A stretch of 64,000 bases of DNA from a virus (IMGVR_UViG_3300017991_000060:53866-117865); one strand, 5' to 3'; shown: positions 5,338 to 64,000, counted from the first letter of the stretch. The notes: a model not told the origin generated them from the sequence alone. Translations and numbers: made by a program.

Positions 5338-6218
5338 CGAACTCTCCCCAGGAGACGGGAAGCGGTGCGCGTGTTGATGGTGTTGAACCTCTCATTCGCG
5401 ATGCGCCGCTCCATCGCACGGGTTGACGGACCCTTCCCAATGCTACCCTGCTCGGACGCCTCCAAGCTAGCCAGGTACTTAGAGTCCGCACCGGCGTTGT
5501 TGCCGTGGTAACGGATGTATTCCCAGTTCGGCACCCTCCTGAGAAGCGGCTTCATCTGAAGCCTGACTGTGGCCCCGTAGGGACGGCCTGATATCGGGTG
5601 CCACGGCGGCTCCCACGTCACCGCGATGTTGGTGATGTACCCGCGGATGATCTTCCACGAGCCGATCACGAGGAGCACCATCGGGGGGTCACGCCGCTTC
5701 GCGTTCTGCCACCTACGCCTCATACCCCTGCTGGTTGCTGCCGTCGGGATGTTGAGCGTCCTGAACTGCTGCCATGCGTCCGGCCGCTCCAGGCGGAACC
5801 CGAGCGCCATGCACCAGTTCACCTTGCGCTCCATCGCGATGAGTGCCTCGTTCAAGGTGTAGGGCCACATGGCATTCGGGTCTGACATCCGGCCGCCATC
5901 ACCCGTCTTGATGCCAGTGCGGAACTTCAGGACGAGGTTGATGTCGCCCCAGCTCCCACCCTTGTAGTTCACATGCGTCGGTTGTGGTGCGACGTTGCCG
6001 CCGTGCTCCTGGTACGCCGCCAACGAGTAGGACTCCTCCATGTTCTCGTGGAACGGGAAGGCGTCGAACACGAGGCGCGAGTCGCCCGGCACCGGAGCGT
6101 ACTCCAGGACCAGCGCGCACATCGTCGTATTGCTCCACGTCGCGTTCGGCGCGAGGCGCGCAACGTGCGGGGATTGCCAGGGCTGAGTCTCCTCCCGTCT
6201 TGCCGCGTCGTCTACCAT
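5334..6218 (-). CDS. Tail tube initiator / CIS tube-like protein
   Basis: Lies between tape measure and LysM gene; PPMVLLVIGSWKIIRGYITNIAVTWE...PYGATVRLQM is typical of this class. Confidence 0.7.
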   Translation of the reverse strand: MVDDAARREETQPWQSPHVARLAPNATWSNTTMCALVLEYAPVPGDSRLVFDAFPFHENMEESYSLAAYQEHGGNVAPQPTHVNYKGGSWGDINLVLKFRTGIKTGDGGRMSDPNAMWPYTLNEALIAMERKVNWCMALGFRLERPDAWQQFRTLNIPTAATSRGMRRRWQNAKRRDPPMVLLVIGSWKIIRGYITNIAVTWEPPWHPISGRPYGATVRLQMKPLLRRVPNWEYIRYHGNNAGADSKYLASLEASEQGSIGKGPSTRAMERRIANERFNTINTRTASRLLGRVR

Positions 6219-37297: not shown

Positions 37298-37470
37298 GTC
37301 GGACTCCTTGTAAGGCGGTCGCCGGTAACGGACCGTAGGAGGCGGAGTCCAGGGTTCGCCACCGGACGACCATGTCCTTCAGCTCGGCACCGTATCTCCG
37401 CCGAGCTCTTCGCGGGCCAGTATACCGAACCGGCCCAGCGGCGTCACGCGAGCCGGGTGGGAACGTAGGG
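37088..37470. repeat. 29-bp direct repeat with one mismatch
   Basis: CGTCACGCGAGCCGGGTGAGAACGTAGGG (37088-37116) versus CGTCACGCGAGCCGGGTGGGAACGTAGGG (37442-37470). Confidence 0.9.
37301..37371 (-). promoter_or_regulatory. Pseudoknotted leader RNA sequestering the RBS of the 36380-37297 gene (HDV-like topology)
   Basis: Helix 37371-37357 with 37330-37317; GGACUCC (37350-37344) pairs perfectly with GGAGUCC (37307-37301), which contains the SD; inner hairpin GCC-UCCUAC-GGU. Confidence 0.6.
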
Positions 37471-45403: not shown

Positions 45404-46432
45404 CTACCCTCCCGCGGGCGGCGTCGTCTCGGGTGCCGGGGTCCCGCGCATAAGGTGGGCGAGCCCGGCGGCCTGAAGCGCGCCGTCCACGCTCCCGTAC
45501 TTGGCGAAGTCATGGGGGAGGTTCAGCGACCAGAGGACCGCGCAAATCTGGCCATCGTACATACCGAGCATCTTGTCCTGGGCGGCGATCTTCCCCTGGA
45601 GGTCCGCTACCTGCGCCTTGACGCCCTGCTGGCCCTGAAGAACCTTGAGCTGCGCGATCATCGCGTCGAGCGTAGCGCGGATCTCGTGGGCCTTCTCCTC
45701 CTTGCGGAAAGCGGCCCCCAGGCGCTCGTCCCAGGTACGGTCGGTGTGCCCGGCCGGTGCGGTGCTGGCCGCCGGGGCGTCGATGACGTTCGCGGCCTTG
45801 CCGCTCGGGGCGGCCCCCAGGAGCTTGTTCGCCACGGTGATGACGGAATCCTTCGGGAGCCTGCCCTTGTCCTTCAGGTCGCCGTTGAGGAGGGCCTTGC
45901 GAGCGTCGCCTACCGTCTTGCACCCGCACTTCTCCGCGCCCTTCAGCTCCTTCTTCTCCAGGCCGAGGACAGAGATGGGATAATCGTCGAAGGACCCGAG
46001 GGGGGCATCACCGGCATCGTCCACAGTGGTAGGCACGCCGGCCGCGGCGAGGCCCTCGATCTCCTTGTCCTTCTTCGCGAGGTCGCTGCGGAGCGCCTCG
46101 ATGGTGGCCTCCAGCTCCGCGATGGTCCTAGCGTCGGACCCATCCGGGGCGGCGGCGCGGGCCTTCCTCAGCTCCTCTTTGAGCTTCTCGACTTCAACGT
46201 TGGCGGCCGGAGCTGCCTGGGCCTTGGCGAGCGCCTCGCGCGCCTCGTCACGCTCACGGAGGAGCTGCTCAGCGCGTGCGTTCGCGGCCGTCATCGCCCC
46301 CTCGGCGTAGGCGATGTCCTCGGGGTCGTCCTGGGGCTCCGCCGGCTCCGCACCGTCCGGGCTGAGGAAGATGATGGTCGCCGTCATTCCGGCGGCCTGG
46401 GCCGCCTTGATCGCTTCCTTGATGTGCGTCAC
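45404..46432 (-). CDS. Coiled-coil protein with RNA polymerase alphaCTD-like HhH domain
   Basis: YPISVLGLEKKELKGAEKCGCKTVGDARKALLNGDLKDKGRLPKDSVITVANKL follows the alphaCTD pattern PIxxLxL...GxxTVGD...L...KxS..I...L. Confidence 0.6.
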   Translation of the reverse strand: MTHIKEAIKAAQAAGMTATIIFLSPDGAEPAEPQDDPEDIAYAEGAMTAANARAEQLLRERDEAREALAKAQAAPAANVEVEKLKEELRKARAAAPDGSDARTIAELEATIEALRSDLAKKDKEIEGLAAAGVPTTVDDAGDAPLGSFDDYPISVLGLEKKELKGAEKCGCKTVGDARKALLNGDLKDKGRLPKDSVITVANKLLGAAPSGKAANVIDAPAASTAPAGHTDRTWDERLGAAFRKEEKAHEIRATLDAMIAQLKVLQGQQGVKAQVADLQGKIAAQDKMLGMYDGQICAVLWSLNLPHDFAKYGSVDGALQAAGLAHLMRGTPAPETTPPAGG

Positions 46433-46920
46433 TTGCTCGCTCCCTTCGCTTTGAGTAAACGTCGCGCGACCTCATCGGCCGCACGCTTCGCCGCTTCCTT
46501 CGTCTCCTCGATGATCTGTGCGTGCTGTTCTCGCGCCGCCTTCGTCCTGGCGCGTTCGACCCGGAACGTAGACGGGTGCTCGACCTTCACGGCTTGGAAG
46601 ATGTCGATCTTGGCCTTCTTCGCGCCGTCCACGAAGGCGGCCGTGGGCTTGAACTCTCGTGCGAGCTCCACCGGTGGGATGAGTTCCGCCAGCTTCTCGG
46701 GGTCCGTCACACTGAAGGACCTACGTGAGCCGAACACAACGTTCCCTTGCTCCACGATGAGCTTGTCCTGGTTGTCCTCGGAGAGCATCAGCTCCAGGCG
46801 GGCACGATCCTCCTCGATGAGAGTCTCCAGGGCCTTGGCTCGTGACTTCAGGATGCATATTCGGGAGAGGAGGAGCTCCTTCTCCGCGGCGCGCTGGGTA
46901 GACGTAGCGGTGGTTTCCAA
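46429..46920 (-). CDS. Gam/Gp157-like protein (possible DNA-end-protecting or nuclease-inhibiting)
   Basis: N-terminal coiled coil then KLIVEQGNVVFGSRRSFSVTDPEKL; TTG start after TAGGAGG. Confidence 0.4.
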   Translation of the reverse strand: METTATSTQRAAEKELLLSRICILKSRAKALETLIEEDRARLELMLSEDNQDKLIVEQGNVVFGSRRSFSVTDPEKLAELIPPVELAREFKPTAAFVDGAKKAKIDIFQAVKVEHPSTFRVERARTKAAREQHAQIIEETKEAAKRAADEVARRLLKAKGASK

Positions 46921-46956
46921 GGTGTCGCCTCCTACGGTCCGTCACAACCTCGTGTG

Positions 46957-52824: not shown

Positions 52825-54911
52825 CGGCGCGCCCTCTCCAAGTACGGGTCGAACCGTTGGCGGAGCTGGTCGCGCGGTCGCGCTCCGGGCTGGGGGTCCA
52901 TCGGGGCCGTCTTGTCGGTGAGGCATCGGAACACCGCGCCCGCTACCGCGTCGGCCACGTCCTTCGACCCCTTCGACCCGTCGGGGTTGCGGTCCCGATG
53001 GTCGATCTTGTCCCGCTTCACGTCGTGCTCCAGTCCTGCAAGCTCCTGATACAGTATCACACGGGCTAGTGCCGCTTCCACAGCTTCCGGCCGCGCCACA
53101 CGCACGAGCTCGGCGGCCGATCCCACCATGAGCCCTCTCGGCCACGGCGCGACGACCCGGTGCTCGTTCATCGCCTGACGAGTATCCTTGTAGGGCTGGC
53201 TCGTCTTGTCCGTGGACTGGTTCTCGGCATGGAACCCGGCGTCACGCATCCGCTGGAGGAAGTCGAAGCTCATGTACTGGTCGGCCGTGACCGACGCGAT
53301 GTGGTAGCCGATCCGCCGGAGCCAGTCGATGAACACGCGAATGCGCCGATAGTCGATGGGCTGGCGGAACGGGCCGCCGATGATCCCGAGATAGAAGTCC
53401 ACCTCCACCGTCTTCACGACTTCACCCTCACCTACACGCGCCGAGTCGTTGGCGAGGTCCTCGGCGGACCTCTCCACCACCTCGTGGCCGCTCGGGTGCA
53501 CCATCGCGATTCCCGTGCGGTCGCCCCCTTGGGAGAGGTCGAGGTGAACGTACCTGGGGGCGTGCGGGTGACGGATCGGCCGGAGGCGGCCCATCTCGAT
53601 GCGGGTCACGAGGTCATGCTCGAATGCATCCTGGAGCTGGGCGCTCTGCCCCTCGTAGACGGGGAGCTCCTGGGCCGTGAACGGGAACACCAGCTCGGGG
53701 TCGAACACGTCGCGGAGCACCTCGCGCCGGGGGAAGAAGGGGTTGAACCCACCGGTGGGCACGTCGTCGATCACGCGAAGGGACTCATAGAGGTCGTCCT
53801 TGTGAGCGCGGAAGTGGAGCACCGGGACGTGAAGGATGAGCGACGGGTCGAGTCCACCTTCCGTCTCGGGAGCCACCGGCTCGATGTAGTAGCCCCCGTC
53901 CATGCGTCGCTCGACGTGATCGAGGACCCGCGCGTCGGTCGTTTCGCTCCCGGTGTACACGCGGAAGGTCGGGTCGCCGGGCTGAAATCCGCGGTTACGT
54001 TCGCGGTGATACCCCTTCGTGTTGATGGACCACCGCGGCCCCCGGACGATGTAGACCCCGCGGCTCCCCTTCTTGTCTTTGATCCGTTGCTCCAGGAAAT
54101 CGGAGGAGGTCCTCGTCTGGGAGACATAAATGCCAATTCCGGGGATGTCGCCCCCCTCCTCGATGAACCGCGACTCCATCCGGCGGGAGACCTCCGCCAC
54201 CATGTCGTGCGCCTTGTTCTCGGTCTTTTCGCCCATGTGGTAATAGTTCAACTCGTCCGCAGAGCACGCGAAGAGGTTCCGGCCAAGGGCGTGCATCTTC
54301 GTGGAGCCGGTGATGACCTGGATGCACTTCTGGGGCCAGTGGATGTACTCGCGGCCCATGGGAAGTCGCGGGTACAGATCGCGGAAGAAGGGCGACTGGT
54401 CGAGGAGCACGTCGCGCAGCTCGTAGAAGCCGACCTGTTTGATGAGCGTCTTGGTCACGGCGTACAGCCCGAAGAACAACATCGCCCGCGGGTTGAACCC
54501 ATAGAAAACATTCGGCTGGCGGAGACAGAAGAGACGGCAGAGCTTGAAAGCAAGCACCATCATCGCGAAGGTCGTTTTCCCGAGGCCCTGGGCTCCGGTG
54601 AGGACGAGCTCGTGGACGCCGGAGTGAGGGTCGCACACCCTGATGAAGTGGGGCCGCCAGTTTGGGTACAGCTCCTCCTTGTAGTGCCCCAGGTAATCCA
54701 TCGAGTCGAGGAACACCTCGGGGGTCGGGGGGATGCGCTCATAGTCGAAGGCGTACAGCGCCTCTAGGGCGGCCTTATCCCGCTTGACGAGCACCTCCTC
54801 TGCTTGGGAGAGAAAGAACCGGCGGGCGGCGGGGGAGAGGTTCATGTAGCGTTCGAGCGAACCTTCCCCAATGTTCGAGAGCACCTGGCGGAACATGGAA
54901 TCATCAGACAC
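52821..54911 (-). CDS. terL: Terminase large subunit
   Basis: Walker A GAQGLGKTT, Walker B SADELNY, nuclease HLDLSQGGDRTG, ADQY and KDVADAVAG. Confidence 0.95.
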   Translation of the reverse strand: MSDDSMFRQVLSNIGEGSLERYMNLSPAARRFFLSQAEEVLVKRDKAALEALYAFDYERIPPTPEVFLDSMDYLGHYKEELYPNWRPHFIRVCDPHSGVHELVLTGAQGLGKTTFAMMVLAFKLCRLFCLRQPNVFYGFNPRAMLFFGLYAVTKTLIKQVGFYELRDVLLDQSPFFRDLYPRLPMGREYIHWPQKCIQVITGSTKMHALGRNLFACSADELNYYHMGEKTENKAHDMVAEVSRRMESRFIEEGGDIPGIGIYVSQTRTSSDFLEQRIKDKKGSRGVYIVRGPRWSINTKGYHRERNRGFQPGDPTFRVYTGSETTDARVLDHVERRMDGGYYIEPVAPETEGGLDPSLILHVPVLHFRAHKDDLYESLRVIDDVPTGGFNPFFPRREVLRDVFDPELVFPFTAQELPVYEGQSAQLQDAFEHDLVTRIEMGRLRPIRHPHAPRYVHLDLSQGGDRTGIAMVHPSGHEVVERSAEDLANDSARVGEGEVVKTVEVDFYLGIIGGPFRQPIDYRRIRVFIDWLRRIGYHIASVTADQYMSFDFLQRMRDAGFHAENQSTDKTSQPYKDTRQAMNEHRVVAPWPRGLMVGSAAELVRVARPEAVEAALARVILYQELAGLEHDVKRDKIDHRDRNPDGSKGSKDVADAVAGAVFRCLTDKTAPMDPQPGARPRDQLRQRFDPYLERARR

Positions 54912-55065
54912 CGGCCACCTCCTCGACCCCCAGGATACCCGAGGAATACCCTAGAAGAAAAGGAGTCCATCAGGAGGTCCTCTCCCCCCTATCTGTCATC
55001 GTGGATGGGTTTGGACATAAATGCTTCTCAATATTGCACATCTAGCACTGGGCAGACCCTACAGG

Positions 55066-55095
55066 TTGAACACGCGACAATGCGTGTGCTAAGAT
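55066..55095 (+). promoter_or_regulatory. sigma70-type promoter for the HNH gene
   Basis: TTGAAC, 18 nt, TAAGAT with extended -10 TG; CACGC-N6-GCGTG palindrome in the spacer; A/T-rich intergenic region. Confidence 0.6.
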
Positions 55096-55130
55096 ACCCT
55101 AAAGATTGAGCACGCAACATGGGAGGGCCG

Positions 55131-55589
55131 ATGGCACGTAAGCGGTGGAAACACTCCAGCCACAAGTACCGGGCGGAGTACATGGCGTGGGCCAACATGC
55201 ACCGCCGGTGCTACGGCGGCCATCCGGTGGACTGGCAGTACCGCGCGCGGGGGATCGCTGTCTGCGCGCGGTGGGCCTCGTTCGACGCCTTCATGGATGA
55301 CCTTGGACCGCGGCCGACGAAGGGGCACACACTGGAACGGATCGACAACGAGGGCGACTACGCCCCCGAGAACTGCCGCTGGGCCACCTGGGGGGCGCAG
55401 CACAACAACAAGCGCGGCGTCGTGAAAGTCACGCTGGACGGGGAGACGCTCTCGCTCGCCCAGTGGGCGCGGCGCATCGGGATGAAGCCCGGAACCCTCC
55501 GGTGGCGGGTGTCGCGGGCGAGGGCCAACGGTGGCTCGGCAGAGGACGCCGTGCGGAAGGCCGTCGAAGACGCCGGGGGCGTGTTGTAG
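55131..55589 (+). CDS. HNH endonuclease
   Basis: WANMHRRC...RGIAVCARW..FDAFMDDLGPRP...TLERIDNEGDYAPENCRWAT...NNKR plus C-terminal DGETLSLAQWARRIG HTH; GGGAGG SD before ATG 55131. Confidence 0.92.
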   Translation: MARKRWKHSSHKYRAEYMAWANMHRRCYGGHPVDWQYRARGIAVCARWASFDAFMDDLGPRPTKGHTLERIDNEGDYAPENCRWATWGAQHNNKRGVVKVTLDGETLSLAQWARRIGMKPGTLRWRVSRARANGGSAEDAVRKAVEDAGGVL

Positions 55590-55602
55590 GCGCGTCGGTC
55601 AG
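55587..55602 (+). repeat. Class A motif: TAG-N6-CGGTCAG at HNH stop
   Basis: TAG GCGCGT CGGTCAG G. Confidence 0.75.
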
Positions 55603-55627
55603 GCGGCCGGGCCGCGGTCCAAATGCG

Positions 55628-55668
55628 AAAAAAGCGTGGCCGCACCGCCTTGCGTTGACGGTGCGGCC
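55628..55668 (-). terminator. Intrinsic terminator for the minus-strand early operon
   Basis: Perfect 10-bp stem 55638-55647/55659-55668, then ACGC-TTTTTT on the minus strand. Confidence 0.65.
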
Positions 55669-55758
55669 TGGTATGGTGGTGAGAGTCGCTCCTGGCGATG
55701 CTGGATCATGCGCGGCCCGCGCCCCCGAACGCGGGCCGTCGCTCTGTACAGGGCGCAT

Positions 55759-56028
55759 CTACGTGCGCCCGCTTGCACGAAACCCATCCACGATGGTCTC
55801 GATCCTGAACGCCCAGCCCCGGCCGTTCAGGATGCGGAGGGCGAGCTCCTTCGGACGCCGCGCGAGGTCCGGTCGCACGTCGTGTTTGGCGATCTCGACA
55901 TCCTCCTCCCCAGCGCGGCGGAACTTCGCGGCCATCTTCCGCGCGTCCTTCAAGGAGGTGTACCAACGGGAGCGGTCGTTCGTCTCGTCGGAGGGATCGA
56001 GGCCGGGGTCTACCTGGTAGAAGTGCAT
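55759..56028 (-). CDS. Hypothetical protein
   Basis: MHFYQVDPG..., 89 aa, ATG overlapping the upstream TGA. Confidence 0.7.
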   Translation of the reverse strand: MHFYQVDPGLDPSDETNDRSRWYTSLKDARKMAAKFRRAGEEDVEIAKHDVRPDLARRPKELALRILNGRGWAFRIETIVDGFRASGRT

Positions 56029-56504
56029 CACACCCCCACCTTCCCCGCGCCTTCGCACGTCGGGCACCGGACCTCCCCGGCCCCGCGGCACTCGTGACAG
56101 ATCGCCCCGTCGTGGCCGCCCTCGCCGCTCCCGGAGCACGAGGTACACATCACCGCGCCGGTGCCGCCGCAATCATCGCAGTCAGTCTCCGGCAAGTACT
56201 CGTCGTCCGCTCCGCACTTGCACCCGGTCCGCATCCCGCAGCGGTAGCACTTCTTCTGGAAGAGCTTCGCGCCCATGAGCGGTCCGAACACCCAAGCGGC
56301 CGGGAGGCGGTCGGAGCGCCCCAGGGCAAAGATGCACGAGAGGACCCCGGCGATGAAGTCCGCCTCGCTCTTGAGGCTTCCGGCGTCGGCCCGCTGATTC
56401 CCGGCCGCCTCGGCGTACTCGAAGATGGCCTCGCACTGGGCCTCGGTGAGCGGCTCTACACCTTCGCGGGCGAGCATCTCCCGCGCGAGTCTGTCCAGGT
56501 CCAT
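56028..56504 (-). CDS. Protein with DnaJ-type CxxCxGxG zinc finger
   Basis: CDDCGGTG, CTSCSGSG, CHECRGAG, CPTCEGAG; no J-domain. Confidence 0.8.
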   Translation of the reverse strand: MDLDRLAREMLAREGVEPLTEAQCEAIFEYAEAAGNQRADAGSLKSEADFIAGVLSCIFALGRSDRLPAAWVFGPLMGAKLFQKKCYRCGMRTGCKCGADDEYLPETDCDDCGGTGAVMCTSCSGSGEGGHDGAICHECRGAGEVRCPTCEGAGKVGV

Positions 56505-56821
56505 CAGTCGCTCCCTTCCGCGGCCGTCGCCGCCCTCTCGGCCTCGCACTCGGCGCACAGCTTGTCGCCGGGGAGCACGTACTCCCCGCAGTCGTCGCAC
56601 CGATGGCAGAACCCCCGGTGCGTGTAGTCGCACTTCTCGCAGTACTCCTCGCGGACGAAGGTGATCTCCTCCAGGGCGGCGAGGGCCTCCCTCCGCGCGT
56701 CGTCGAGCTCCCGCGCGTCCTCGGCGCGCGAGGCTCGGTCCAGGATGTCGGCGGCCTTGATGAGCGCCTCCACCGTGTCGTCCACGTCGAACCACTGGCC
56801 CAGGTGATATGCTCCGGCCAC
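56504..56821 (-). CDS. Cys-rich hypothetical protein
   Basis: GTG start after GAGGAGG; CEKC, CHRCDDC, CAEC. Confidence 0.7.
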   Translation of the reverse strand: MAGAYHLGQWFDVDDTVEALIKAADILDRASRAEDARELDDARREALAALEEITFVREEYCEKCDYTHRGFCHRCDDCGEYVLPGDKLCAECEAERAATAAEGSD

Positions 56822-56822
56822 G

Positions 56823-57026
56823 CTACACCTCCTCCCCGGCCGCCAGTCGGCGGTACCGCTTCTCCGTTCCCTGGTCATCCCAGCCGGTGCTCTGGCCAGG
56901 CACGATCACGAGGTACCCGTACGCGGCGCGCACCTCGACTCCGAACCCGTCCTCATCGGCCGCCGCCCGCACGGCGCGGGCAGCGGCGGAATCGACCGGG
57001 CGCACGATGAAGAATCGCTCGCTCAT
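56823..57026 (-). CDS. Hypothetical protein
   Basis: 67 aa, GAAGGAG SD. Confidence 0.7.
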   Translation of the reverse strand: MSERFFIVRPVDSAAARAVRAAADEDGFGVEVRAAYGYLVIVPGQSTGWDDQGTEKRYRRLAAGEEV

Positions 57027-57039
57027 CGCCCGCTCCTTC

Positions 57040-57222
57040 CTACTCCCCCAACGTGTCGAATATCGGGGTTCCGTCCTTGCGTTCGCCGTGGGGGTTGTCG
57101 CACACGGGGTCCTCCCACCCCTCCTCCGAGGCGAAGATGGGCTCGGCGTCCTCGTGCGGTTTGCACTCCGCGCAGTACGCCGCCCCGTCGTGCGTCCAGC
57201 CCACGATCTCCCATGCCTTCAC
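57040..57222 (-). CDS. Small acidic Cys/His protein
   Basis: YCAEC...CDNPH; GTG after GAGGAG. Confidence 0.7.
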   Translation of the reverse strand: MKAWEIVGWTHDGAAYCAECKPHEDAEPIFASEEGWEDPVCDNPHGERKDGTPIFDTLGE

Positions 57223-57236
57223 TTGTCCGCTCCTCT

Positions 57237-57252
57237 CTGACCGGCGGGCCTA
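57237..57252 (-). repeat. Class A motif: TAG-N6-CGGTCAG-RR-AGGAG
   Basis: TAG GCCCGC CGGTCAG AG AGGAG. Confidence 0.88.
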
Positions 57253-57546
57253 CAGCACCCGCAAACCCAGCTTCTTCGCCTTGCGCTTCGCCTCCCGCCT
57301 CCGGCACGCGAGGGCGGCCTGGTACACGTCGTCGTACGAGCCGACGCTTCGGAGCGTCTCCTCGATGCGCTTGATGGTGGCCTTCGTCTGTTCGACCCGT
57401 TCCGTCATGCCGCGCTTGGCGAACCGTTCGCGGCGGTCGGCCAGCCGACAGAGACGCGCGGCAGTGCGGGCGCACTGGGCTTTGCTCCACCGCTTATCCA
57501 ATGGCTTCGTGTTCACTGGCTTCCTGGGCCTCTTCCGCTTGCTCAT
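57250..57546 (-). CDS. Highly basic hypothetical protein
   Basis: MSKRKRPRKP...RRREAKRKAKKLGLRVL, 98 aa. Confidence 0.7.
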   Translation of the reverse strand: MSKRKRPRKPVNTKPLDKRWSKAQCARTAARLCRLADRRERFAKRGMTERVEQTKATIKRIEETLRSVGSYDDVYQAALACRRREAKRKAKKLGLRVL

Positions 57547-57890
57547 CGCTCGCTCGTTCCTTCCTGGTGGGCGCGAGGCCCCCCTCCGGGGGATTGAGAC
57601 CTGATGATCCCGTCCTTGATCGCGCCCTCCACGATGGTCTGGCGCTCCTCCTCGGTGAGCTCCCCCCACCAGTGGGGGGCCTTGTCATCGTTGTCGGGGC
57701 TCCGGCGGCCGTCGGGGTACTCGACGGTCCCGTTGGAACCGTCGCCCCCGAGGGGAGTCGGGTTTTTCGCTTCGCTCAAGGCGCGCCAGAGCTTGCGGTA
57801 GAGGTCATTCCCCACGCCTGGGATGCACTCGGCCACCTCGTCGGCGGTCCAGTACTCCAGCTCGGCGGGGCACTTGGTGGGTTCGCGCAT
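57543..57890 (-). CDS. Hypothetical protein
   Basis: ATG 57890 after GAAGGAG; 115 aa. Confidence 0.7.
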   Translation of the reverse strand: MREPTKCPAELEYWTADEVAECIPGVGNDLYRKLWRALSEAKNPTPLGGDGSNGTVEYPDGRRSPDNDDKAPHWWGELTEEERQTIVEGAIKDGIIRSQSPGGGPRAHQEGTSER

Positions 57891-57908
57891 CGTCTCTCTC
57901 CTTCCTTC

Positions 57909-57924
57909 CTGACCGAGCGGCCTA
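57909..57924 (-). repeat. Class A motif
   Basis: TAG GCCGCT CGGTCAG GA AGGAAGGAG. Confidence 0.88.
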
Positions 57925-58977
57925 CGAGGCCACCCGTGCTTCTGCCACCACCGCGGGGAGCGGCGGCAGCTCGATCTCCTCACGCCAGCCCGGCCGGAAC
58001 ACATCGAGGAACCCTTCCAAGAGGGACCGGCGCGGGTACAACTTGATGGAATACCTGGAGTCCGGCCCTACCTCGACCAGCCCCTCCTCGTCTGTCTCCG
58101 CGGCCTTGGGGTCCTTCCAGACCTCCAAGAGATTCCGGCCGATGATCGCGCGCTGGGGCCGCTTCCAAGCGCGGGCGTTCTTCTTCGTGGGGCGGAGGTA
58201 CTCCCTCTTCAGGAACCGCGACAGCGCGCGGCCCAACTTCGTGGTGGCGGTGTCATGCGTGGACACCTCGACCAGCCCGAACCCGATCAGCGGGTTGTAG
58301 TCTTTCCGGTGCTTGTCCACTGTCTTTGGCTTCGGTGAGTACGCCTCGTTCGCCATACGGAGAAGGAGGGTGCGCGACGCTTGGGGGAGCCGGAAGCGGA
58401 TGGCGTCGAGCTCCTCATCTGAGATGAGGTCGCCACGCACCGCCTCGACCTCGGCCTCGGCCTTGGCGAGCGCCTCTTCCGCGCGGGCGAGGGCGGCCGG
58501 GAGGTCGGAGAGCTTCTGGAGGGCGACGGCGTGAGCCTTCGCCGCCGCCACCGGCGAGTGGAACCCGCGCTCGGTGATCTGGAAGAGGTGAACGTACGGC
58601 TTGAGCGCGGGGCGGCCGTATACGACGTGCCGCAAGCGGCTCGCGGCTTCGCGGAACGCGCGCTTCGCCTCGCCGTACTCCACGAGGACCTTCTGCGCGT
58701 GCGGCGTGGGATCGCCCCACCCCTTGAGGGAGCGGCATCGGTTCTTCGCCTTCTCAGCCGCCCGGAGGGCCGTGCGCGCCTTCCGGTACTCCTGGTCGTA
58801 CTGGAGGAAGAATGGCTCGTCGAGGGCCGCCTGGAGGTCCCTACCGGCCTTGGCTGCGGCTTCCAGCGAGCCGTGCGTTCGGATGGCGAGGTCGAGTTCG
58901 GAGCGGATGTTCGCAACCGTCTGTCTTCGCCACTGTGCACCTTGCTCGGCGTGTTTGAGGTCCTCTTTCGTTTGCAT
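57922..58977 (-). CDS. Hypothetical coiled-coil protein
   Basis: 351 aa, Ala/Arg-rich helices, GGGAGG SD. Confidence 0.75.
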   Translation of the reverse strand: MQTKEDLKHAEQGAQWRRQTVANIRSELDLAIRTHGSLEAAAKAGRDLQAALDEPFFLQYDQEYRKARTALRAAEKAKNRCRSLKGWGDPTPHAQKVLVEYGEAKRAFREAASRLRHVVYGRPALKPYVHLFQITERGFHSPVAAAKAHAVALQKLSDLPAALARAEEALAKAEAEVEAVRGDLISDEELDAIRFRLPQASRTLLLRMANEAYSPKPKTVDKHRKDYNPLIGFGLVEVSTHDTATTKLGRALSRFLKREYLRPTKKNARAWKRPQRAIIGRNLLEVWKDPKAAETDEEGLVEVGPDSRYSIKLYPRRSLLEGFLDVFRPGWREEIELPPLPAVVAEARVAS

Positions 58978-58995
58978 CGCAGCCTCCCTGGTCTT

Positions 58996-59118
58996 TCATG
59001 TCCGGCCGTTGAGGTCCTCCCTGGTGAGCGAGCTCTCCGCGAGGAGGTCCCCCTCGACCTCGTGTTCGTTGAGGACCTCCTCGTCCCCCCTACCGCAGAT
59101 GTGGCATTTCCTCGGCAT
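58996..59118 (-). CDS. 40-aa hypothetical peptide
   Basis: MPRKCHICGRGDEEVLNEH...; AAAGGAGG SD. Confidence 0.55.
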   Translation of the reverse strand: MPRKCHICGRGDEEVLNEHEVEGDLLAESSLTREDLNGRT

Positions 59119-59132
59119 AGCACGCCCTCCTT

Positions 59133-60278
59133 TCATGCCCCCCGGATGGGGTGGCAAAACTCCGGCCCGTGGTCCTCATCGACAGAGGCGACGAGCGCCT
59201 CCCAGTGCTCCGGCTCCGGCTCGGTGCGGTCGGTCCAGTCGGGCGCGCGGAGCGCCTTCTTCGCGCGCTTGAGAGCGGCGGCCGTCGCGGTGTCCTCGGC
59301 TTTCTCGGCTTCCTCGATCTCCTTGCGAAGCCGGGCCACCTTGTTCGCGTATTTCCCCCAGTCATCAGGAAGGAGCCCGGCGCGTACGGCGAGCCCCTTC
59401 CAGTCCGTCGGGAGGAGCCCCTCCGCTACCAAGCGCGCGCGCCAGCTCCAATTGCGGGGCTTGGTGTCCTCGGGTCCCTTGTCAGCCTTCGTCCGGGTGA
59501 GCCCCAGGCCATTGCATTTGCTCAGGCCGTGCTTGCCCGTCTCGGCGCGGTACTCGATGACCGCGGCGAGGAGGGCGAGGTCGGGGTGCCGCCGCGCGAG
59601 GTCAAACACTTCCTCGGGGCGCGCGGCCGGGCAGAAAAAGCACGCCGACTTCGGGCAGCACCGGGCAGAGATGCTACGCTCGAACTCGTCGCCCATCTCC
59701 TTGCGGATGATCGCGATGAGGTCGGGCCGCTCCAGGCCCCAAACGGACTGGAGGGGGTACCAGAACTCCCAACGGTTCTCGCCTTTCCCCTCGGCTTGCC
59801 GCTTCTCCTCCCGCTTCGCCCAGGCACCGAACCGCTTGCGGTCCGCGGGGGAGTTGTCGTACCCGATGGCGCGGATGACCCTACGTCCCTCGCGGAGCGC
59901 ACGCTTCGCTGGCTTCCAGGCGAGCACGTCCGCGTCGAGCGGGCCATGCTTCCACTTGATGGAGCACGAGGACGGCCCAAAGGAGAGGCCGGGGAGGGTG
60001 TCGTTCGCGAGGCAGTTCCCGTGCAGCGTCGTGTACGGCGCGCGTTTCGGCTCGTAACGAACGACCGTCACGCCAGGGAACCCCACGTCCTTGCACCAGC
60101 GGTGCATGATCCCGACGGTGACGTACGTGTCCGGCGACTCGCTCCCCACGTCCGCGAAGATGATCCGGTCGGGGCGGATGCCCTCCCGGTGGAGGAGGAC
60201 GAGCATCGCGGTTGAGTCCACGCCCGCCCCGTACGAGACGACCAGCGGTCCGTCGCACGGCAAAAGGTCCCTACCCAT
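59133..60278 (-). CDS. PP-loop (PAPS reductase-like) protein 1
   Basis: VVSYGAGVDSTAML, IFADVGSESPDTY, SCSIKWK, IGYD, WYPL, PKSACFFCP. Confidence 0.88.
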   Translation of the reverse strand: MGRDLLPCDGPLVVSYGAGVDSTAMLVLLHREGIRPDRIIFADVGSESPDTYVTVGIMHRWCKDVGFPGVTVVRYEPKRAPYTTLHGNCLANDTLPGLSFGPSSCSIKWKHGPLDADVLAWKPAKRALREGRRVIRAIGYDNSPADRKRFGAWAKREEKRQAEGKGENRWEFWYPLQSVWGLERPDLIAIIRKEMGDEFERSISARCCPKSACFFCPAARPEEVFDLARRHPDLALLAAVIEYRAETGKHGLSKCNGLGLTRTKADKGPEDTKPRNWSWRARLVAEGLLPTDWKGLAVRAGLLPDDWGKYANKVARLRKEIEEAEKAEDTATAAALKRAKKALRAPDWTDRTEPEPEHWEALVASVDEDHGPEFCHPIRGA

Positions 60279-60522
60279 CGCTCTCCTCCTCGGCGCGGAC
60301 CAGGCCCGCGCACAGTTGGCAACGCCCATCGTCGTCGAGGTCGTCGGCGGTCCCGCACTCGCGGCAGTACCCATCGTACGCGCCGGGCGCTTGGCACTCG
60401 CCCTCCCCGTCGCACCCGGCCGCCTCGCACTCGTGGCAGAACGCCGGGACGGTCCAGTCGTCAGAGATGGCGATCTCCATGCAATCCCGGCACCGGCAGT
60501 TCGTGTACCCGCTCTGGGCCAT
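60271..60522 (-). CDS. Small Cys-rich acidic protein
   Basis: CRCRDC, CHEC, CREC, CQLC in 83 aa. Confidence 0.72.
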   Translation of the reverse strand: MAQSGYTNCRCRDCMEIAISDDWTVPAFCHECEAAGCDGEGECQAPGAYDGYCRECGTADDLDDDGRCQLCAGLVRAEEESDG

Positions 60523-60537
60523 CCCTCGCGCTCCTTC

Positions 60538-60553
60538 CTGACCGGCGCGCCTA
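60538..60553 (-). repeat. Class A motif
   Basis: TAG GCGCGC CGGTCAG GA AGGAG. Confidence 0.88.
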
Positions 60554-60718
60554 CACGCGCCGGAGCTCTGACCAGCGACCCTCGATGATGAGAGGGTCGC
60601 GGGAGGTGTTGATCGAGGCGGCGTACTCGGCCGCCGCCTCGCGGGTGGGGAACACCCGTTGCGCTCCCGGCGGGAGCTCGTCGTACGGCACGAACGGGCA
60701 CCCTCTCCACGTCTCCAT
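60551..60718 (-). CDS. 55-aa hypothetical protein
   Basis: METWRGCPFVPYDELPPGAQRVFPTREAAAEYAAS...; GAGGAGG SD; not in the ORF track. Confidence 0.65.
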   Translation of the reverse strand: METWRGCPFVPYDELPPGAQRVFPTREAAAEYAASINTSRDPLIIEGRWSELRRV

Positions 60719-60733
60719 GCTTTCCTCCTCTCC

Positions 60734-60749
60734 CTACGGGTTCGGTCAG
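60734..60749 (-). repeat. Class B motif: CTGACCG-A-N4-GTAG before SD
   Basis: CTGACCG AACCC GTAG GGAGAGGAGG, preceded by the GCCGCC-GC-GGCGGC hairpin. Confidence 0.82.
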
Positions 60750-60763
60750 GCCGCCGCGGCGGC

Positions 60764-61321
60764 CTAGTCCTCCTCCGCGTCGCAGTTCGGGCAGAGCCCA
60801 CAGTCGAGCTCTTCCCCGCACTCCTCGCACTCGCCGCAGTCCGGGCACTCCCCGTCGTCGTCGAGCTCCGCCCCGCAGACTTCGCAGACGCCGCACTCGT
60901 CGTCGTACTCGCACGCGCCCGAGGCTTCGAGCTCGGCCCACCGCTTCTCCGCCTCGCGCTCCTCGGCTTCCAGGCGGACGATGAGCGTCGTCAGCGGCTC
61001 GCCCTCGGGGAGCGCGGCGCACGGTCCCTCCAGGACCACGTAGACGTATCCCCCCGGCGAGTACGGACGCCTCCACCGGAGGGTCCACCCGGTGAGCGCA
61101 TCCCATCCCTCGTCGATGCACCGGCGGATGGCTTCGCCCACGCGCCGGAGCGCCTCCTTCCGCGTCTCGACGCTGGGCGGGGTGCCCTTCTCGCTCACCC
61201 GGCCGGGCACGCAACCGGGGAGCCCCTCCTCGACCTCGGACGCGATGAGTCGCGCGCCCCAGGCATCCTCGACCGTCGGCTCCAGCCCGAACCAGTGCTC
61301 CGTCACGTTCTCGCTACCCAT
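60764..61321 (-). CDS. Hypothetical protein with Cys/acidic C-terminal repeats
   Basis: CEYDDECGVCEVCGAELDDDGECPDCGECEECGEELDCGLCPNC. Confidence 0.75.
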   Translation of the reverse strand: MGSENVTEHWFGLEPTVEDAWGARLIASEVEEGLPGCVPGRVSEKGTPPSVETRKEALRRVGEAIRRCIDEGWDALTGWTLRWRRPYSPGGYVYVVLEGPCAALPEGEPLTTLIVRLEAEEREAEKRWAELEASGACEYDDECGVCEVCGAELDDDGECPDCGECEECGEELDCGLCPNCDAEED

Positions 61322-61348
61322 CGCTCACCTCCTGGTGGTTTCTCGCTT

Positions 61349-61406
61349 GCCCTCGTCAGGGCCGGTTCCACCGGCCGACGCGGGGGCGCATCCCCGCGTT
61401 TCGGGC
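61349..61406 (-). ncRNA. Type II hammerhead self-cleaving ribozyme
   Basis: GCCC-GAAA-CGCGGGG-AUGCGC-CCCCGCG-UC/cut/-GGCCGG-UGGAA-CCGGCC-CUGACGA-GGGC: all core nucleotides (GAAA, GUC, CUGANGA), 8-bp stem III, 6-bp stem I and open 4-bp stem II. Confidence 0.92.
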
Positions 61407-61409
61407 TGG

Positions 61410-61709
61410 CTACAGCCTCCCGCCGCTCGCGTGCTTCGCGGCGACGACCATCTCGTACGTCGCGCGGAGGGCGGGTGTCTCCGCGTCGCTCAGGTTCGCG
61501 AGGACCTCGACCACGAGGCCGCGGATCGCCGCGCGGTACCGCTCCCCCAGGGCTTCCTCGACCCGTTGCACGTCGTCGAGGGAAAGCGTGTACTCCTCGC
61601 CGCACTCCGGGCACGTCTCCCGCTCGTAATCGACGAGGACCGCGAGGCCATCCAGCGTCGCCCCGCACTCGTGCGCCTCGCCGCACCGCTCACACGTCAC
61701 GCTCACCAT
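61410..61709 (-). CDS. Zn-ribbon hypothetical protein
   Basis: CERC...CPEC; ATG after GAAGGAG. Confidence 0.72.
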   Translation of the reverse strand: MVSVTCERCGEAHECGATLDGLAVLVDYERETCPECGEEYTLSLDDVQRVEEALGERYRAAIRGLVVEVLANLSDAETPALRATYEMVVAAKHASGGRL

Positions 61710-61722
61710 CGCTCGCTCCTTC

Positions 61723-61738
61723 CTGACCGGGCGGCCTA
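61723..61738 (-). repeat. Class A motif
   Basis: TAG GCCGCC CGGTCAG GA AGGAG. Confidence 0.88.
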
Positions 61739-62023
61739 CAGCGGCTTCCAGCCCCCGCCCGTGTGGTACTCGATGTCCGTGCATCCCCAGCCGCCGCGCC
61801 CCCAGTCGTCCAGGGGCTCGAACCCGGAGGCGCGCCCGTCGAGGTCCACGAAGAACCCCTCCCCGTAGACCTCCCCGTCCGCGTCCTTCAGGCGGAACCG
61901 CTCCGCGTCCGGGTGTGTTGCGATGTCCTCACCGGCGAGGGTCGCCCCCCGCGGCCCGACCAGTCCGACCCGTTGGTCCGACTCGATGTAGTCTCGGGTG
62001 ATGACCCAGGCGTACTTGCTCAT
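61736..62023 (-). CDS. Hypothetical phage protein
   Basis: FRLKDADGEVYGEG...FEPLDDWG...GCTDIEY; 95 aa. Confidence 0.75.
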   Translation of the reverse strand: MSKYAWVITRDYIESDQRVGLVGPRGATLAGEDIATHPDAERFRLKDADGEVYGEGFFVDLDGRASGFEPLDDWGRGGWGCTDIEYHTGGGWKPL

Positions 62024-62268
62024 TCTTCCCTCCCCTCGTGGTCGATGCGGTGGCTCCAGCGGCGCTCGTGCTTGTTGAGGTACTCCAAGGTCTCCGGGGC
62101 GCAGGACCCCGGACCGTCGAAGAGACGCCGCACTTCCTCCTCGTGGTCCTCGTCGAGCTTGAAGCAGTAGAAGTTCCCCCGGATGGGTCGGCCGATGGAG
62201 ATGATCCCGGCCCCTTGGCAGACCACATAGATGAAGCCGGGGTGCGTCTGCGGGTTGAGCGATTGCAT
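62020..62268 (-). CDS. Hypothetical protein
   Basis: 82 aa, GAGGAGG SD. Confidence 0.7.
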   Translation of the reverse strand: MQSLNPQTHPGFIYVVCQGAGIISIGRPIRGNFYCFKLDEDHEEEVRRLFDGPGSCAPETLEYLNKHERRWSHRIDHEGREE

Positions 62269-62281
62269 GTCCTTCCCTCCT

Positions 62282-62297
62282 CTACAGGTTCGGTCAG
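62282..62297 (-). repeat. Class B motif
   Basis: CTGACCG AACCT GTAG AGGAGG. Confidence 0.82.
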
Positions 62298-62307
62298 GGC
62301 CGGGCGG

Positions 62308-63477
62308 CTAGCTCGGCCCCGCGTTCTCTCCGAAGGCTCCGGCCGGGAGCTTCCACGCCCCCTCCGGTACGATGATCCGTCCGCGGTACTGCTCGCGCCC
62401 CGCGGCGGCGGCGATCCGTTCGGCCGCGCCACCGAGGCACGCCTGGTACACCTCGCCCCGGTCGGCGCGCTCCCTGAGCGTCTCCGAACGGTGGAGGGTG
62501 CCCTTGAACCGCTTGCCCTTGCACTTCGGGCAGCGGTCCGTCCCGGAGGCGAAGCCCGCCCCGCACTTCTTGCACCGCGTGCTCCAGTGGTCTACGAACG
62601 TGTCCTCCAGGGTGGCGATTGCCTGGAAGCGGTCGGGGTAAATGTGGCGGAGGCTCGCCCACTGATTCGGGGAGCCGAAGATGCAAGCGGCACACGAGAG
62701 GCGGCCCCAGCCCAGGCGGTACGCGGCATGGGGGGCGACGCGCCACCGCTCGATGATCGCCCACACCTCGGCCTCGGCCCAGGCGTGCACCGGACGCCAG
62801 CGGTCGATGTGCCTACGCACCCGCTTCCCGTTGCGCGAGTCGGCCCGGTCGGGCTCGAACACCTTGTACTTCGCCCGGTTCGAGCTCTCCTCGGCGCGCT
62901 CCCCGGTGACGGTGAGCGTCCGGCCCCGCTGGAACCGGGGGTCCTTGATGAGTGCCTTGTCCGCGGCGTCGATCTTCAGGAGGGCGGAGCACCACCGGGC
63001 GCGGAGGTCGGCCGACACCTGGGGGAAGCAGAAGCGGGTCCCGACCTTCGCCCGCTCGCCACCGTGGCGGAGCACCTGGACCTTGCCGCCTACCACTTGC
63101 TCCCAAGCGTACCCGGCCGACTTCGCATCCCGCTTCAGGAGCTCCCGCTCGAACCCGCCCTGCTTCCACTGGAAGAGGACCCGCACTCCGAAGGCGTCGC
63201 CCAGGGCTCGGACGTACGACGGGACATCGAGCCAGTCGAAGAGGGCGCTACCTTCTCTCCCGTCGATGCAGTGGTGCCACAGCTCGATCTTCTCCCGAGG
63301 CACGCCCAGCTCCAGGAGGTACAGGAAGCACGCCAGCGAGTCCTTCCCGCCGGACGTGCAGACGACCACCCGGTCGTACGTCCGGGGGTCGCACGGGAGC
63401 GCCGCGACGTTGTGCTGGGGGGCGCTCGTCGGCGCGGCGAACTTCGGCGCGCAAGGCGCGCAGCTCGGAACCTTCAT
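62308..63477 (-). CDS. PP-loop (PAPS reductase/DndC-like) protein 2 with Zn-ribbon insert
   Basis: VVCTSGGKDSLAC, RWCSALLKI, TGERAEESSNRA, WRPVHAWAEAEVW, AYRLGWGRLSCAACIF; CKKC...CPKC insert. Confidence 0.9.
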   Translation of the reverse strand: MKVPSCAPCAPKFAAPTSAPQHNVAALPCDPRTYDRVVVCTSGGKDSLACFLYLLELGVPREKIELWHHCIDGREGSALFDWLDVPSYVRALGDAFGVRVLFQWKQGGFERELLKRDAKSAGYAWEQVVGGKVQVLRHGGERAKVGTRFCFPQVSADLRARWCSALLKIDAADKALIKDPRFQRGRTLTVTGERAEESSNRAKYKVFEPDRADSRNGKRVRRHIDRWRPVHAWAEAEVWAIIERWRVAPHAAYRLGWGRLSCAACIFGSPNQWASLRHIYPDRFQAIATLEDTFVDHWSTRCKKCGAGFASGTDRCPKCKGKRFKGTLHRSETLRERADRGEVYQACLGGAAERIAAAAGREQYRGRIIVPEGAWKLPAGAFGENAGPS

Positions 63478-63490
63478 CGTCCTCTCCTCT

Positions 63491-63506
63491 CTGACCGGCG
63501 GCCCTA
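63491..63506 (-). repeat. Class A motif
   Basis: TAG GGCCGC CGGTCAG AG AGGAG. Confidence 0.88.
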
Positions 63507-63956
63507 CAGCGAAGCGAGCCGCCGGTGGATGTTCTCGTTGTGGACCTTGACGGCCTCGTCGCACTTCTCCAGGAGCTCCGCGGCCTTGCACCCGTACCGC
63601 TCGTGCAGCGGCGTGTACCCGGACGTGAGCCGCCCGTGCGCGGTCCGCCCCCCGTAATCCTCCTCCGACCTCCGGATGGCCGCCGCGAAGCCCGCGCCCG
63701 CCACCGTGGCGAGGAGGCACCCGTGCGACAGCCCGTAGAGCTCGGCCGCCGGGCTGTCCGGGCTGTTGAACCCGTCCCGGAAGCACTGCACCAGGAGGGC
63801 CTTCGCGGCGTGAATGCTCCCCCGGTCGCCGCGCTCGATGCGGAGCGCCTCGCTCCAGAGGCGCGGCCCGGTGTGGTCGTGGCACGAGAAGGCGTACTCG
63901 ACGGCCTGGTACGCCCGGTTGATGATCTCGCGTTCCTTCCTCGTGTACTCGCTCAT
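63504..63956 (-). CDS. Hypothetical protein
   Basis: 150 aa, GAGGAG SD. Confidence 0.75.
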   Translation of the reverse strand: MSEYTRKEREIINRAYQAVEYAFSCHDHTGPRLWSEALRIERGDRGSIHAAKALLVQCFRDGFNSPDSPAAELYGLSHGCLLATVAGAGFAAAIRRSEEDYGGRTAHGRLTSGYTPLHERYGCKAAELLEKCDEAVKVHNENIHRRLASL

Positions 63957-63969
63957 CGCTCGCTCCTCT

Positions 63970-63985
63970 CTACGTGATCGGTCAG
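63970..63985 (-). repeat. Class B motif
   Basis: CTGACCG ATCAC GTAG AGAGGAG. Confidence 0.82.
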
Positions 63986-64000
63986 GCCGCCCCGGAGGGC

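Follow-up and report, generated by a model that had tools for sequence, protein, structure and literature searches.

The seven-base word CGGTCAG and its exact reverse complement CTGACCG recur, each in its own oriented setting, at most gene junctions of the first operon of a phage genome that encodes a T4-type portal. We regard the word as a cis-acting control element of this operon that would most likely be read in the transcript, and put the probability of this reading at roughly 40%. The DNA analysed, referred to here as the window, is the last 64 kb (64,000 nucleotides, nt) of a single 117,865-bp virus contig with 66% GC (IMGVR_UViG_3300017991_000060, positions 53866-117865), which is classed as linear in IMG/VR and has a CheckV completeness estimate of 95%. 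A codon-usage gene call gave 140 genes, nearly all on the minus strand. The motif region is the first 8.4 kb along transcription, a single block of 18 mostly small genes without assigned function, whose products include two PAPS-reductase-like PP-loop proteins and several zinc-ribbon proteins. That this block is an early operon we infer from its layout, as it comes first along transcription, lacks an internal promoter (a consensus scan scored no sigma70-like promoter on either strand between 54500 and 64000) and is closed by a terminator.

In the entire genome, the 7-mer occurs 17 times in either orientation, with 10 copies between genes and 7 within them, yet intergenic DNA makes up only 6.4% of the genome (P = 1.5e-8). 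The signal is concentrated in the first operon, whose intergenic DNA totals 569 nt and contains nine copies against 0.11 expected (P ~5e-15), and the core is the top-ranked 7-mer of this intergenic DNA, above every Shine-Dalgarno (SD) word. Counted bare over the whole window, the 7-mer is not over-represented (15 copies vs 18 expected), the six window copies outside the nine all lying within coding sequence. Variants with one mismatch are not enriched between genes (26 of 412), and none of them stands in either of the two contexts described below. A chance origin of the box was rejected on the grounds that the exact core is enriched between genes while its one-mismatch variants are not.

A first-pass annotation of the same sequence had sorted nine intergenic copies in 8.4 kb into two classes of fixed geometry, and all nine were recovered at their positions and are intergenic by the codon-usage gene call (Table 1). 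Class A reads TAG, 6 nt, CGGTCAG, two purines and AGGA(G) in five minus-strand copies, all in sense orientation, with the core 1-2 nt 5' of AGGAG and 13-20 nt before the start codon; a sixth TAG-6 nt-core copy, on the plus strand, lacks an SD. Class B, represented by three minus-strand copies, reads CTGACCG, A, 4 nt, GTAG and then the SD, and in B2 and B3 a GC hairpin directly precedes the core. The order along the transcript, B-A-B-A-B-A-A-A, and the spans of the three B...A brackets (495, 575 and 212 bp) were likewise reproduced. The remark that these brackets lack target-site duplications needs some qualification, in that GTAG is found at both inner bracket edges; it stands insofar as these tetramers most plausibly represent stop codons, either still in use or fossil. 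Restriction of the core to early junctions was borne out within the window, but another intergenic copy lies outside it, at genome position 7996.

Table 1. Core-bearing junctions and associated features of the first operon (window coordinates; aa, amino acids).
Feature	Extent	Strand	Core	Context
B1	63957..64000	-	63979-63985	5' of 150-aa gene; upstream context cut by contig end
A1	63478..63506	-	63491-63497	150-aa gene stop, 6 nt, CGGTCAG, AG, AGGAG, start of PAPS-reductase-like gene
B2	62269..62310	-	62291-62297	PAPS-reductase-like gene stop, GC hairpin, CTGACCG-A-N4-GTAG, SD of 82-aa gene
A2	61710..61738	-	61723-61729	between 95-aa and 99-aa genes
Type II hammerhead-like element	61341..61406	-		Rfam RF02276, 30.4 bits (gathering score 37), E=0.005; every core position present
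B3	60719..60766	-	60743-60749	185-aa gene stop, 7-8 bp GC hairpin, CTGACCG-A-N4-GTAG, SD of 55-aa gene
A3	60523..60553	-	60538-60544	between 55-aa and 83-aa genes
A4	57891..57924	-	57909-57915	between 351-aa and 115-aa genes
A5	57223..57252	-	57237-57243	between 98-aa and 60-aa genes
Intrinsic terminator	55638..55668	-		12-bp stem followed by T run; closes the motif-bearing operon
Plus-strand copy	55587..55620	+	55596-55602	HNH gene stop TAG, 6 nt, core, GC hairpin, no SD
HNH homing endonuclease gene	55131..55589	+		phrog_3377, E=3.9e-40; sole plus-strand gene of the block

The distribution over junctions is similarly clean. Eight of the first-operon junctions longer than 18 nt carry the core, and the only long one without it is filled by the hammerhead-like element, so that none has neither; the other non-overlapping junctions (13, 14 and 18 nt) contain an SD alone. 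At 26, 26, 28, 31 and 27 nt, the class A junctions exceed these plain ones by about 15 nt. Of about 16 early genes with an SD, 5 have the combination of core and SD, which is absent from all of the roughly 76 other SD-bearing genes. In terms of absolute strand, the ten intergenic copies split 5:5 into 'core then GC hairpin' and 'core then SD', and the flanking bases common to the two sets are limited to Y-core-R. The exact reverse-complement relation between classes A and B has a chance probability of about 1e-3, as estimated from base composition, so any model must account for it.

Several other repeated strings were seen at or near these junctions. A near-copy of the core, CTGGTCAG, lies within the 55-aa gene on the minus strand (window 60565-60572), 30 nt upstream of A3, and in the minimum-energy fold the B3 core pairs with this near-copy rather than with A3. 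The string (ACTA)AACCTGTAGGG(T), which makes up the 3' half of class B (AACCYGTAGRG), recurs 5' of several genes (genome 7825-7839 and 10484-10498; window 55056-55067) and may be a promoter-like element or one linked to the ribosome-binding site (RBS). The RBS-to-start string AGCGAGCGATG is shared by at least five genes of this genome (window 63957-63970 and 61710-61722; genome 26342, 38661 and 96473) and by three genes of the related contig introduced next, and could possibly serve as microhomology for junction recombination.

Two relatives were available for comparison. The first, L006, is an 8.7-kb metagenome contig of 66.5% GC with a PAPS-reductase-like protein 73% identical to that of the window. 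It carries two exact and two one-mismatch sense-strand boxes: the exact cores are located in the A1-orthologous junction before the PAPS-reductase-like gene and in one further junction, the A2 orthologue reads CGGTTAG and precedes a different downstream gene, and CGGTAAG stands in the 5' untranslated region before the first gene after the promoter, where there is no upstream gene. Class B is less stable, with CTGACTG at the homologous place of B2 and no copy in the junction homologous to that of B3. The second relative, L176, has 53% GC and corresponds to the left end of an IMG/VR contig of 39.9 kb. It contains one exact box, TAG-N6-core-AA-AGGAG-N8-ATG, about 1.3 kb upstream of a gene whose product is homologous (26% identity) to the 696-aa protein encoded after the window's operon, and the same sample yielded a portal fragment (L025) 80% identical to the portal of the window phage. 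The L176 unit lies within a continuous 175-aa frame, at the point where a helix-turn-helix-like half meets a zinc-ribbon half; the other seven cores of this record are coding and lack the box context. The pattern that retrieved L176 is expected to give about 160 chance matches over 2.9 million contigs, but as this match falls in a relative, it is very unlikely to be due to chance. Beyond these loci, a search of cultured phages gave no close relatives, an IMG/VR search with three early proteins and the portal returned only a distant locus and a 5.5-kb fragment, and among GTDB genomes the best identity was 52%.

The relatives allow the geometry of the box to be dissected. The distance from core to SD is 1-2 nt in 10 of 10 A-type boxes from the three phages, whereas that from TAG to core is 6 nt in the window, 4, 4 and 5 nt in L006 and 6 nt in L176, and one of the L006 GTAG tetramers is not the stop of any open reading frame (ORF) of at least 20 codons. 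In the orthologous A1 and A2 junctions the spacer has changed relative to L006, with the core exact at A1 and altered by one mismatch at A2. Because the SD spacing is constant, the TAG spacing varies and one box has no upstream gene, class A is tied to the start of the downstream gene and not to the end of the upstream one. This weakens the initial proposal that class A marks gene ends; of the spacing rules put forward, the one towards the SD was retained in additional copies and the one towards TAG was relaxed.

L006 also lends support to the label 'early', since a TTGACA-N17-TAGTCT promoter, seen by eye and given no score by the consensus scan, precedes its homologous block. A perfect 11-bp inverted repeat (GACAAGCCCGC...GCGGGCTTGTC; L006 2735-2785) brackets positions -35 to +15 of this putative promoter and looks like an operator. 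A tRNA-Glu(CTC) (2652-2722) is encoded just upstream of it, and a T-arm/acceptor-like remnant (GGTTCGACTCC...CCA; 5540-5578), which was called by neither ARAGORN nor Rfam, stands directly before a class A box.

Two structured features of the window phage bear on the level at which the word may be read. The hammerhead-like element has a fold z-score of -3.0 and carries CTGACGA directly after its stem I hairpin. Secondly, a perfect 17-nt inverted repeat connects window positions 37328-37344 and 46926-46942: the arm in the leader of a late gene contains an anti-SD string whose complement is found in the RBS region of gene 46429-46920, and the two arms harbor one-mismatch versions of both cores, next to the anti-SD and the SD. 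The same leader has further matches of 11-12 nt to the RBSs at window 22276 and genome 21370.

We favor recognition at the RNA level for several reasons. Which way the core points agrees strictly with its context and with the direction in which the locus is transcribed, the plus-strand HNH gene included, and the sole conserved spacing is that between core and SD. Junctions equivalent to the core-bearing ones hold the hammerhead-like element in the window and a tRNA in L006, and the 17-nt leader/RBS antisense pair of the same genome carries near-core arms. In addition, seven to nine bases provide too little information for a DNA-binding regulator in a cell but are typical of RNA seeds and RNA-binding sites, which likewise argues for a word read as RNA. 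Finally, in the only variant B/A pair of L006, the sense RNA has U in place of C at both changed positions, such that 7/7 pairing is kept via G-U; by our own count, the chance of a pairing-preserving pair of changes is about 0.07. Mechanistically, CGGUCAG of class A, 1-2 nt 5' of the SD, would act as a start-associated box that enlarges the translation-initiation region at some of the early genes. It may also serve as docking site for a trans-acting factor, protein or RNA, which would then set translation or cleavage of the box-bearing cistrons. Class B, with its GC hairpin followed by CUGACCGA about 10 nt before the next SD, would present the complement of the A box in single-stranded form, able to pair with any A box in the same mRNA. 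One could go further and view A and B as complementary RNA seeds beside GC hairpins, forming gene-spanning helices that gate translation or direct processing of the enclosed cistrons; this elaborated version we consider unlikely. If true, it would amount to an RNA 'punctuation code' at work in the same operon as a self-cleaving ribozyme and tRNA-type elements, and the 17-nt leader/RBS antisense pair elsewhere in the genome would be related to it.

Several observations weigh against a word read in the transcript. Folding assigns the three B:A helices probabilities of only 0.004, 0.28 and 0.04, and the hairpins adjacent to class A boxes, compared with shuffled sequences, score z = -3.0 for A1, but +0.7, -1.3, -0.1 and -0.4 for the others. 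A4, A5 and the first boxes of L006 lack a nearby B partner, and the L006 variant CGGTAAG would mismatch a B box. A search for homologues of RegA and RegB found none, and no candidate reader was identified; moreover, only two relatives were examined. The depletion of the core in coding DNA (7 observed vs 17-19 expected, with both orientations rarer) is weak, as it ranks in the lowest 4% of comparable words, and fits a DNA site equally well.

The last point leads to the first alternative, a double-stranded DNA operator for one sequence-specific protein of phage or host that would act as a stoperator-like roadblock to shut off the early operon, which we consider possible, if rather unlikely. On this model the protein would bind regardless of orientation, and the need to fit a site into junctions of 26-45 nt would account for the fixed geometry. 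The model is attractive in that one factor and one site suffice to explain the reverse-complement relation and the 5:5 strand split. It also accommodates the under-representation of the core in coding DNA in both orientations, the roughly 15 extra nt of class A junctions, as expected from insertion of a site, and the HNH-linked copies that lack an SD. However, a 7-9 bp asymmetric site with nothing but Y-core-R in common between the classes is too information-poor for specific DNA binding in a cell, and an orientation-blind protein would not predict the perfect correlation between orientation and context, nor a core-SD spacing kept across three phages while the other flank drifts. The coding depletion is weak once calibrated and does not discriminate between RNA and DNA models, and general scans revealed no repressor-like gene among the early genes. 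Should the operator nonetheless be real, stoperator-like shut-off would for the first time have been described beyond the temperate actinophages.

A second alternative sees the junction repeats mainly as recombination linkers, in which the A and B modules of about 25 nt each provide the phage recombination system with microhomology for the swapping, gain and loss of early genes, a role also proposed for the PeSLs of T4, and in which class B-type junctions may be homing targets of the HNH endonuclease gene. Comparison of the window with L006 is suggestive: homology starts at the A1 GTAG, ends just after the B2 core and ends again at the ATG after A2, so that 3/3 examined block boundaries fall within motif junctions; the unit of gp99 and the hammerhead-like element 3' of A2 is present in the window only, and B3 is missing from L006. 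Furthermore, spacers are alike within a genome and unlike between genomes, which suggests homogenisation. The HNH-linked copies could be taken the same way. The genome copy at 7996 lies 3' of a 20-codon remnant of a homologous HNH C-terminus, and remnant and 3' flank (genome 7931-8010) match the window's HNH gene up to a point right after core + GCGGC. By virtue of this homology, the two HNH-linked cores are related by descent and not independent; read on the minus strand, both show a hairpin followed by CTGACCGA, the class B layout. We nevertheless hold the linker model to be decidedly unlikely. Mosaic boundaries at gene junctions are the rule in phages with or without special sites, so ordinary mosaicism would also produce block boundaries within motif junctions. 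A and B are mutually inverted and would yield inversions instead of cassette exchange, no site-specific recombinase is encoded in the genome, and homology alone cannot keep a 7-mer exact beside a diverging spacer or in a relative of 53% GC. For this last reason, recombination at the junctions is likely a side effect rather than the function of the box.

The proposal of a cassette acquisition system, offered by the first-pass annotation next to that of a regulator's binding grammar, fared correspondingly. Searches for tyrosine recombinases (PF00589), serine recombinases (PF00239) and Y1 transposases (PF01797) gave no match in this 95%-complete genome, while the positive controls matched in 14, 13 and 10 of 14 genomes; site-specific recombination and transposition were rejected on this basis. 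Likewise rejected was a split hairpin with genes inserted into its loop, as IMG/VR holds no unsplit copies. Cassettes in the integron sense are therefore unsupported: there is no recombinase, the cores flank genes and no unsplit site was found in IMG/VR. A binding grammar of a regulator remains the best class of explanation because two relatives retain the exact core amid altered flanks.

That class B represents decayed or variant hammerhead ribozymes (a hairpin, then CUGA...), with class A unrelated, is highly improbable: the hammerhead-like element does lie in the same operon with its CTGACGA directly after the stem I hairpin and shares the 11-mer CCGGCCCTGAC with B2, but cmscan at E up to 10 detected no hammerhead match at any B site, the same extra base in the CUGA box of all B copies speaks for one family and not for independent decay, stems II and III are missing with the upstream GAA stretches being coding (zinc-ribbon CPNC codons), and the exact complementarity to class A (chance ~1e-3) would be left unexplained.

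Other candidates were discarded more directly. Sigma70 promoters in the junctions were rejected for want of promoter-like sites on either strand (54500-64000), and a T7-type promoter, conceivable from the TAGGGAG-like end of class B, because the spacing to the SD leaves no leader; a search for a phage-type RNA polymerase (PF00940) found no match, its positive control being likewise silent. A genome-wide habit of stop and SD sequences does not apply, as TAG directly followed by GGAGG is common everywhere and the core is not. Nor do the class A junction lengths share one frame, as stop-codon readthrough into the next gene would require. The class A hairpin was dropped as a conserved structure, its z-scores being mostly insignificant and the hairpin not kept in L006. 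A mimic of CRISPR repeats (hairpin plus 8-nt handle) was set aside since hairpin sequences vary by copy and there is neither an array nor an Rfam CRISPR match; overall, the Rfam scan (E up to 10) gave no family match at A or B sites.

Some features of the genome at large may be added. The contig end (window 64000) is situated 15 nt upstream of the B1 core, and at the opposite end an ORF (genome 3-413) runs off with no stop codon. Since a PAPS-reductase-like protein identical to the one here is on record from a 124-kb contig, the present sequence may lack about 6 kb, or the genome may be circularly permuted. The 6-bp palindromes AGCGCT, AGGCCT, CGATCG, CTCGAG, GACGTC, GGGCCC, CTGCAG, TGCGCA, GTCGAC and TGATCA are wholly absent from coding DNA, although 7-mers that contain them have an expected count of 13-25 under synonymous-codon shuffles. 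This indicates strong avoidance of restriction sites. In the left half of the genome, sigma70-like promoters (TTGACA-N17-TAnnnT) have as their -35 region a repeat of 11-12 nt, GTTTGACAGAC(G), which lies at genome positions 3538, 26576 and 34326.

Among known systems, the box is best filed as a new form of the phage start-associated junction motif, with a complementary partner class that is as yet unexplained. To our knowledge, the readers and functions of the start-associated sequences (SAS) and promoter early stem-loops (PeSLs) are open, and only for stoperators have they been settled. In mechanism, the closest analogy is offered by T4 RegB and RegA and by Com of phage Mu, which recognise short RNA words at or beside the SD of particular messages, early ones among them, and switch their translation or stability; it is an analogy only, for no RegA or RegB homologue is present and the word is not GGAG. 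The attC sites of integrons also feature seven-base reverse-complementary cores, gene cassettes and variable hairpins, but both of their cores are contained in a single site of 57-141 bp located between cassettes, and the IntI tyrosine recombinase is required. In the window, stretches of 212-575 bp that include genes separate the two cores of a pair, and the genome encodes no recombinase. Repetitive extragenic palindromes with their associated transposases (REP/RAYT) differ by the Y1 transposase, which is lacking here, and by the position of the class B GTAG on the wrong side of the hairpin.

The SAS and extended SAS (ESAS) of Cluster K mycobacteriophages consist of the 13-mer GGGATAGGAGCCC, which contains the SD and is found with at most two deviations; a protein or RNA reader has been postulated, the function was left open, and an inverted repeat sometimes lies upstream (PMC3203893). 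Class A resembles SAS in being short and asymmetric, in lying on or right beside the SD within a few nt of the start codon, and in keeping one orientation relative to the gene. Both are associated with non-structural genes of different families and kept across related phages, here the first operon and its counterparts in L006 and L176. Unlike SAS, CGGTCAG-RR-AGGAG is unrelated to GGGATAGGAGCCC, with the 7-mer lying 5' of the SD; a second class exists that carries the exact reverse complement after a hairpin; and the motif is confined to one operon of a T4-portal-type phage, whereas SAS extend over half a siphovirus genome. PeSLs of T4-like phages combine a stem-loop with a complete sigma70-type promoter (-35, N17, -10) (PMC2839356, PMC4122927). 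As with PeSLs, composite junction elements with stem-loops recur around small early ORFs, in a part of a T4-type genome that is plastic. PeSLs adjoin insertions, deletions and replacements between relatives, and the box may do so as well: 3/3 block boundaries lie in motif junctions in the comparison with one relative, gene boundaries being usual breakpoints anyway. But junctions of 26-45 nt are too short for -35, N17, -10 and a leader, no promoter was found, and A and B are inverted with respect to each other, unlike the directly repeated PeSLs. Stoperators of Cluster A mycobacteriophages are 13-14 bp long, distributed genome-wide in a single orientation relative to transcription and bound by the immunity repressor (PMC9283540, PMC6550527). 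They share with the box the many copies of a short asymmetric site in small gaps near stop codons, but the present word comprises 7-9 nt, has five sense and three antisense copies in one operon, and outside the first operon is found between genes only in the HNH-remnant copy.

Against this background, the box stands out as an unusually clean case, with an exact word at 8/9 junctions longer than 18 nt, two orientation-specific contexts and survival in relatives that differ by 13 GC points. It would offer a tractable way to find the protein or RNA that acts as a new early-gene regulator in an uncultured lineage of T4-portal-type, high-GC phages, and a system in which to ask whether complementary boxes within one mRNA organise its translation or processing.

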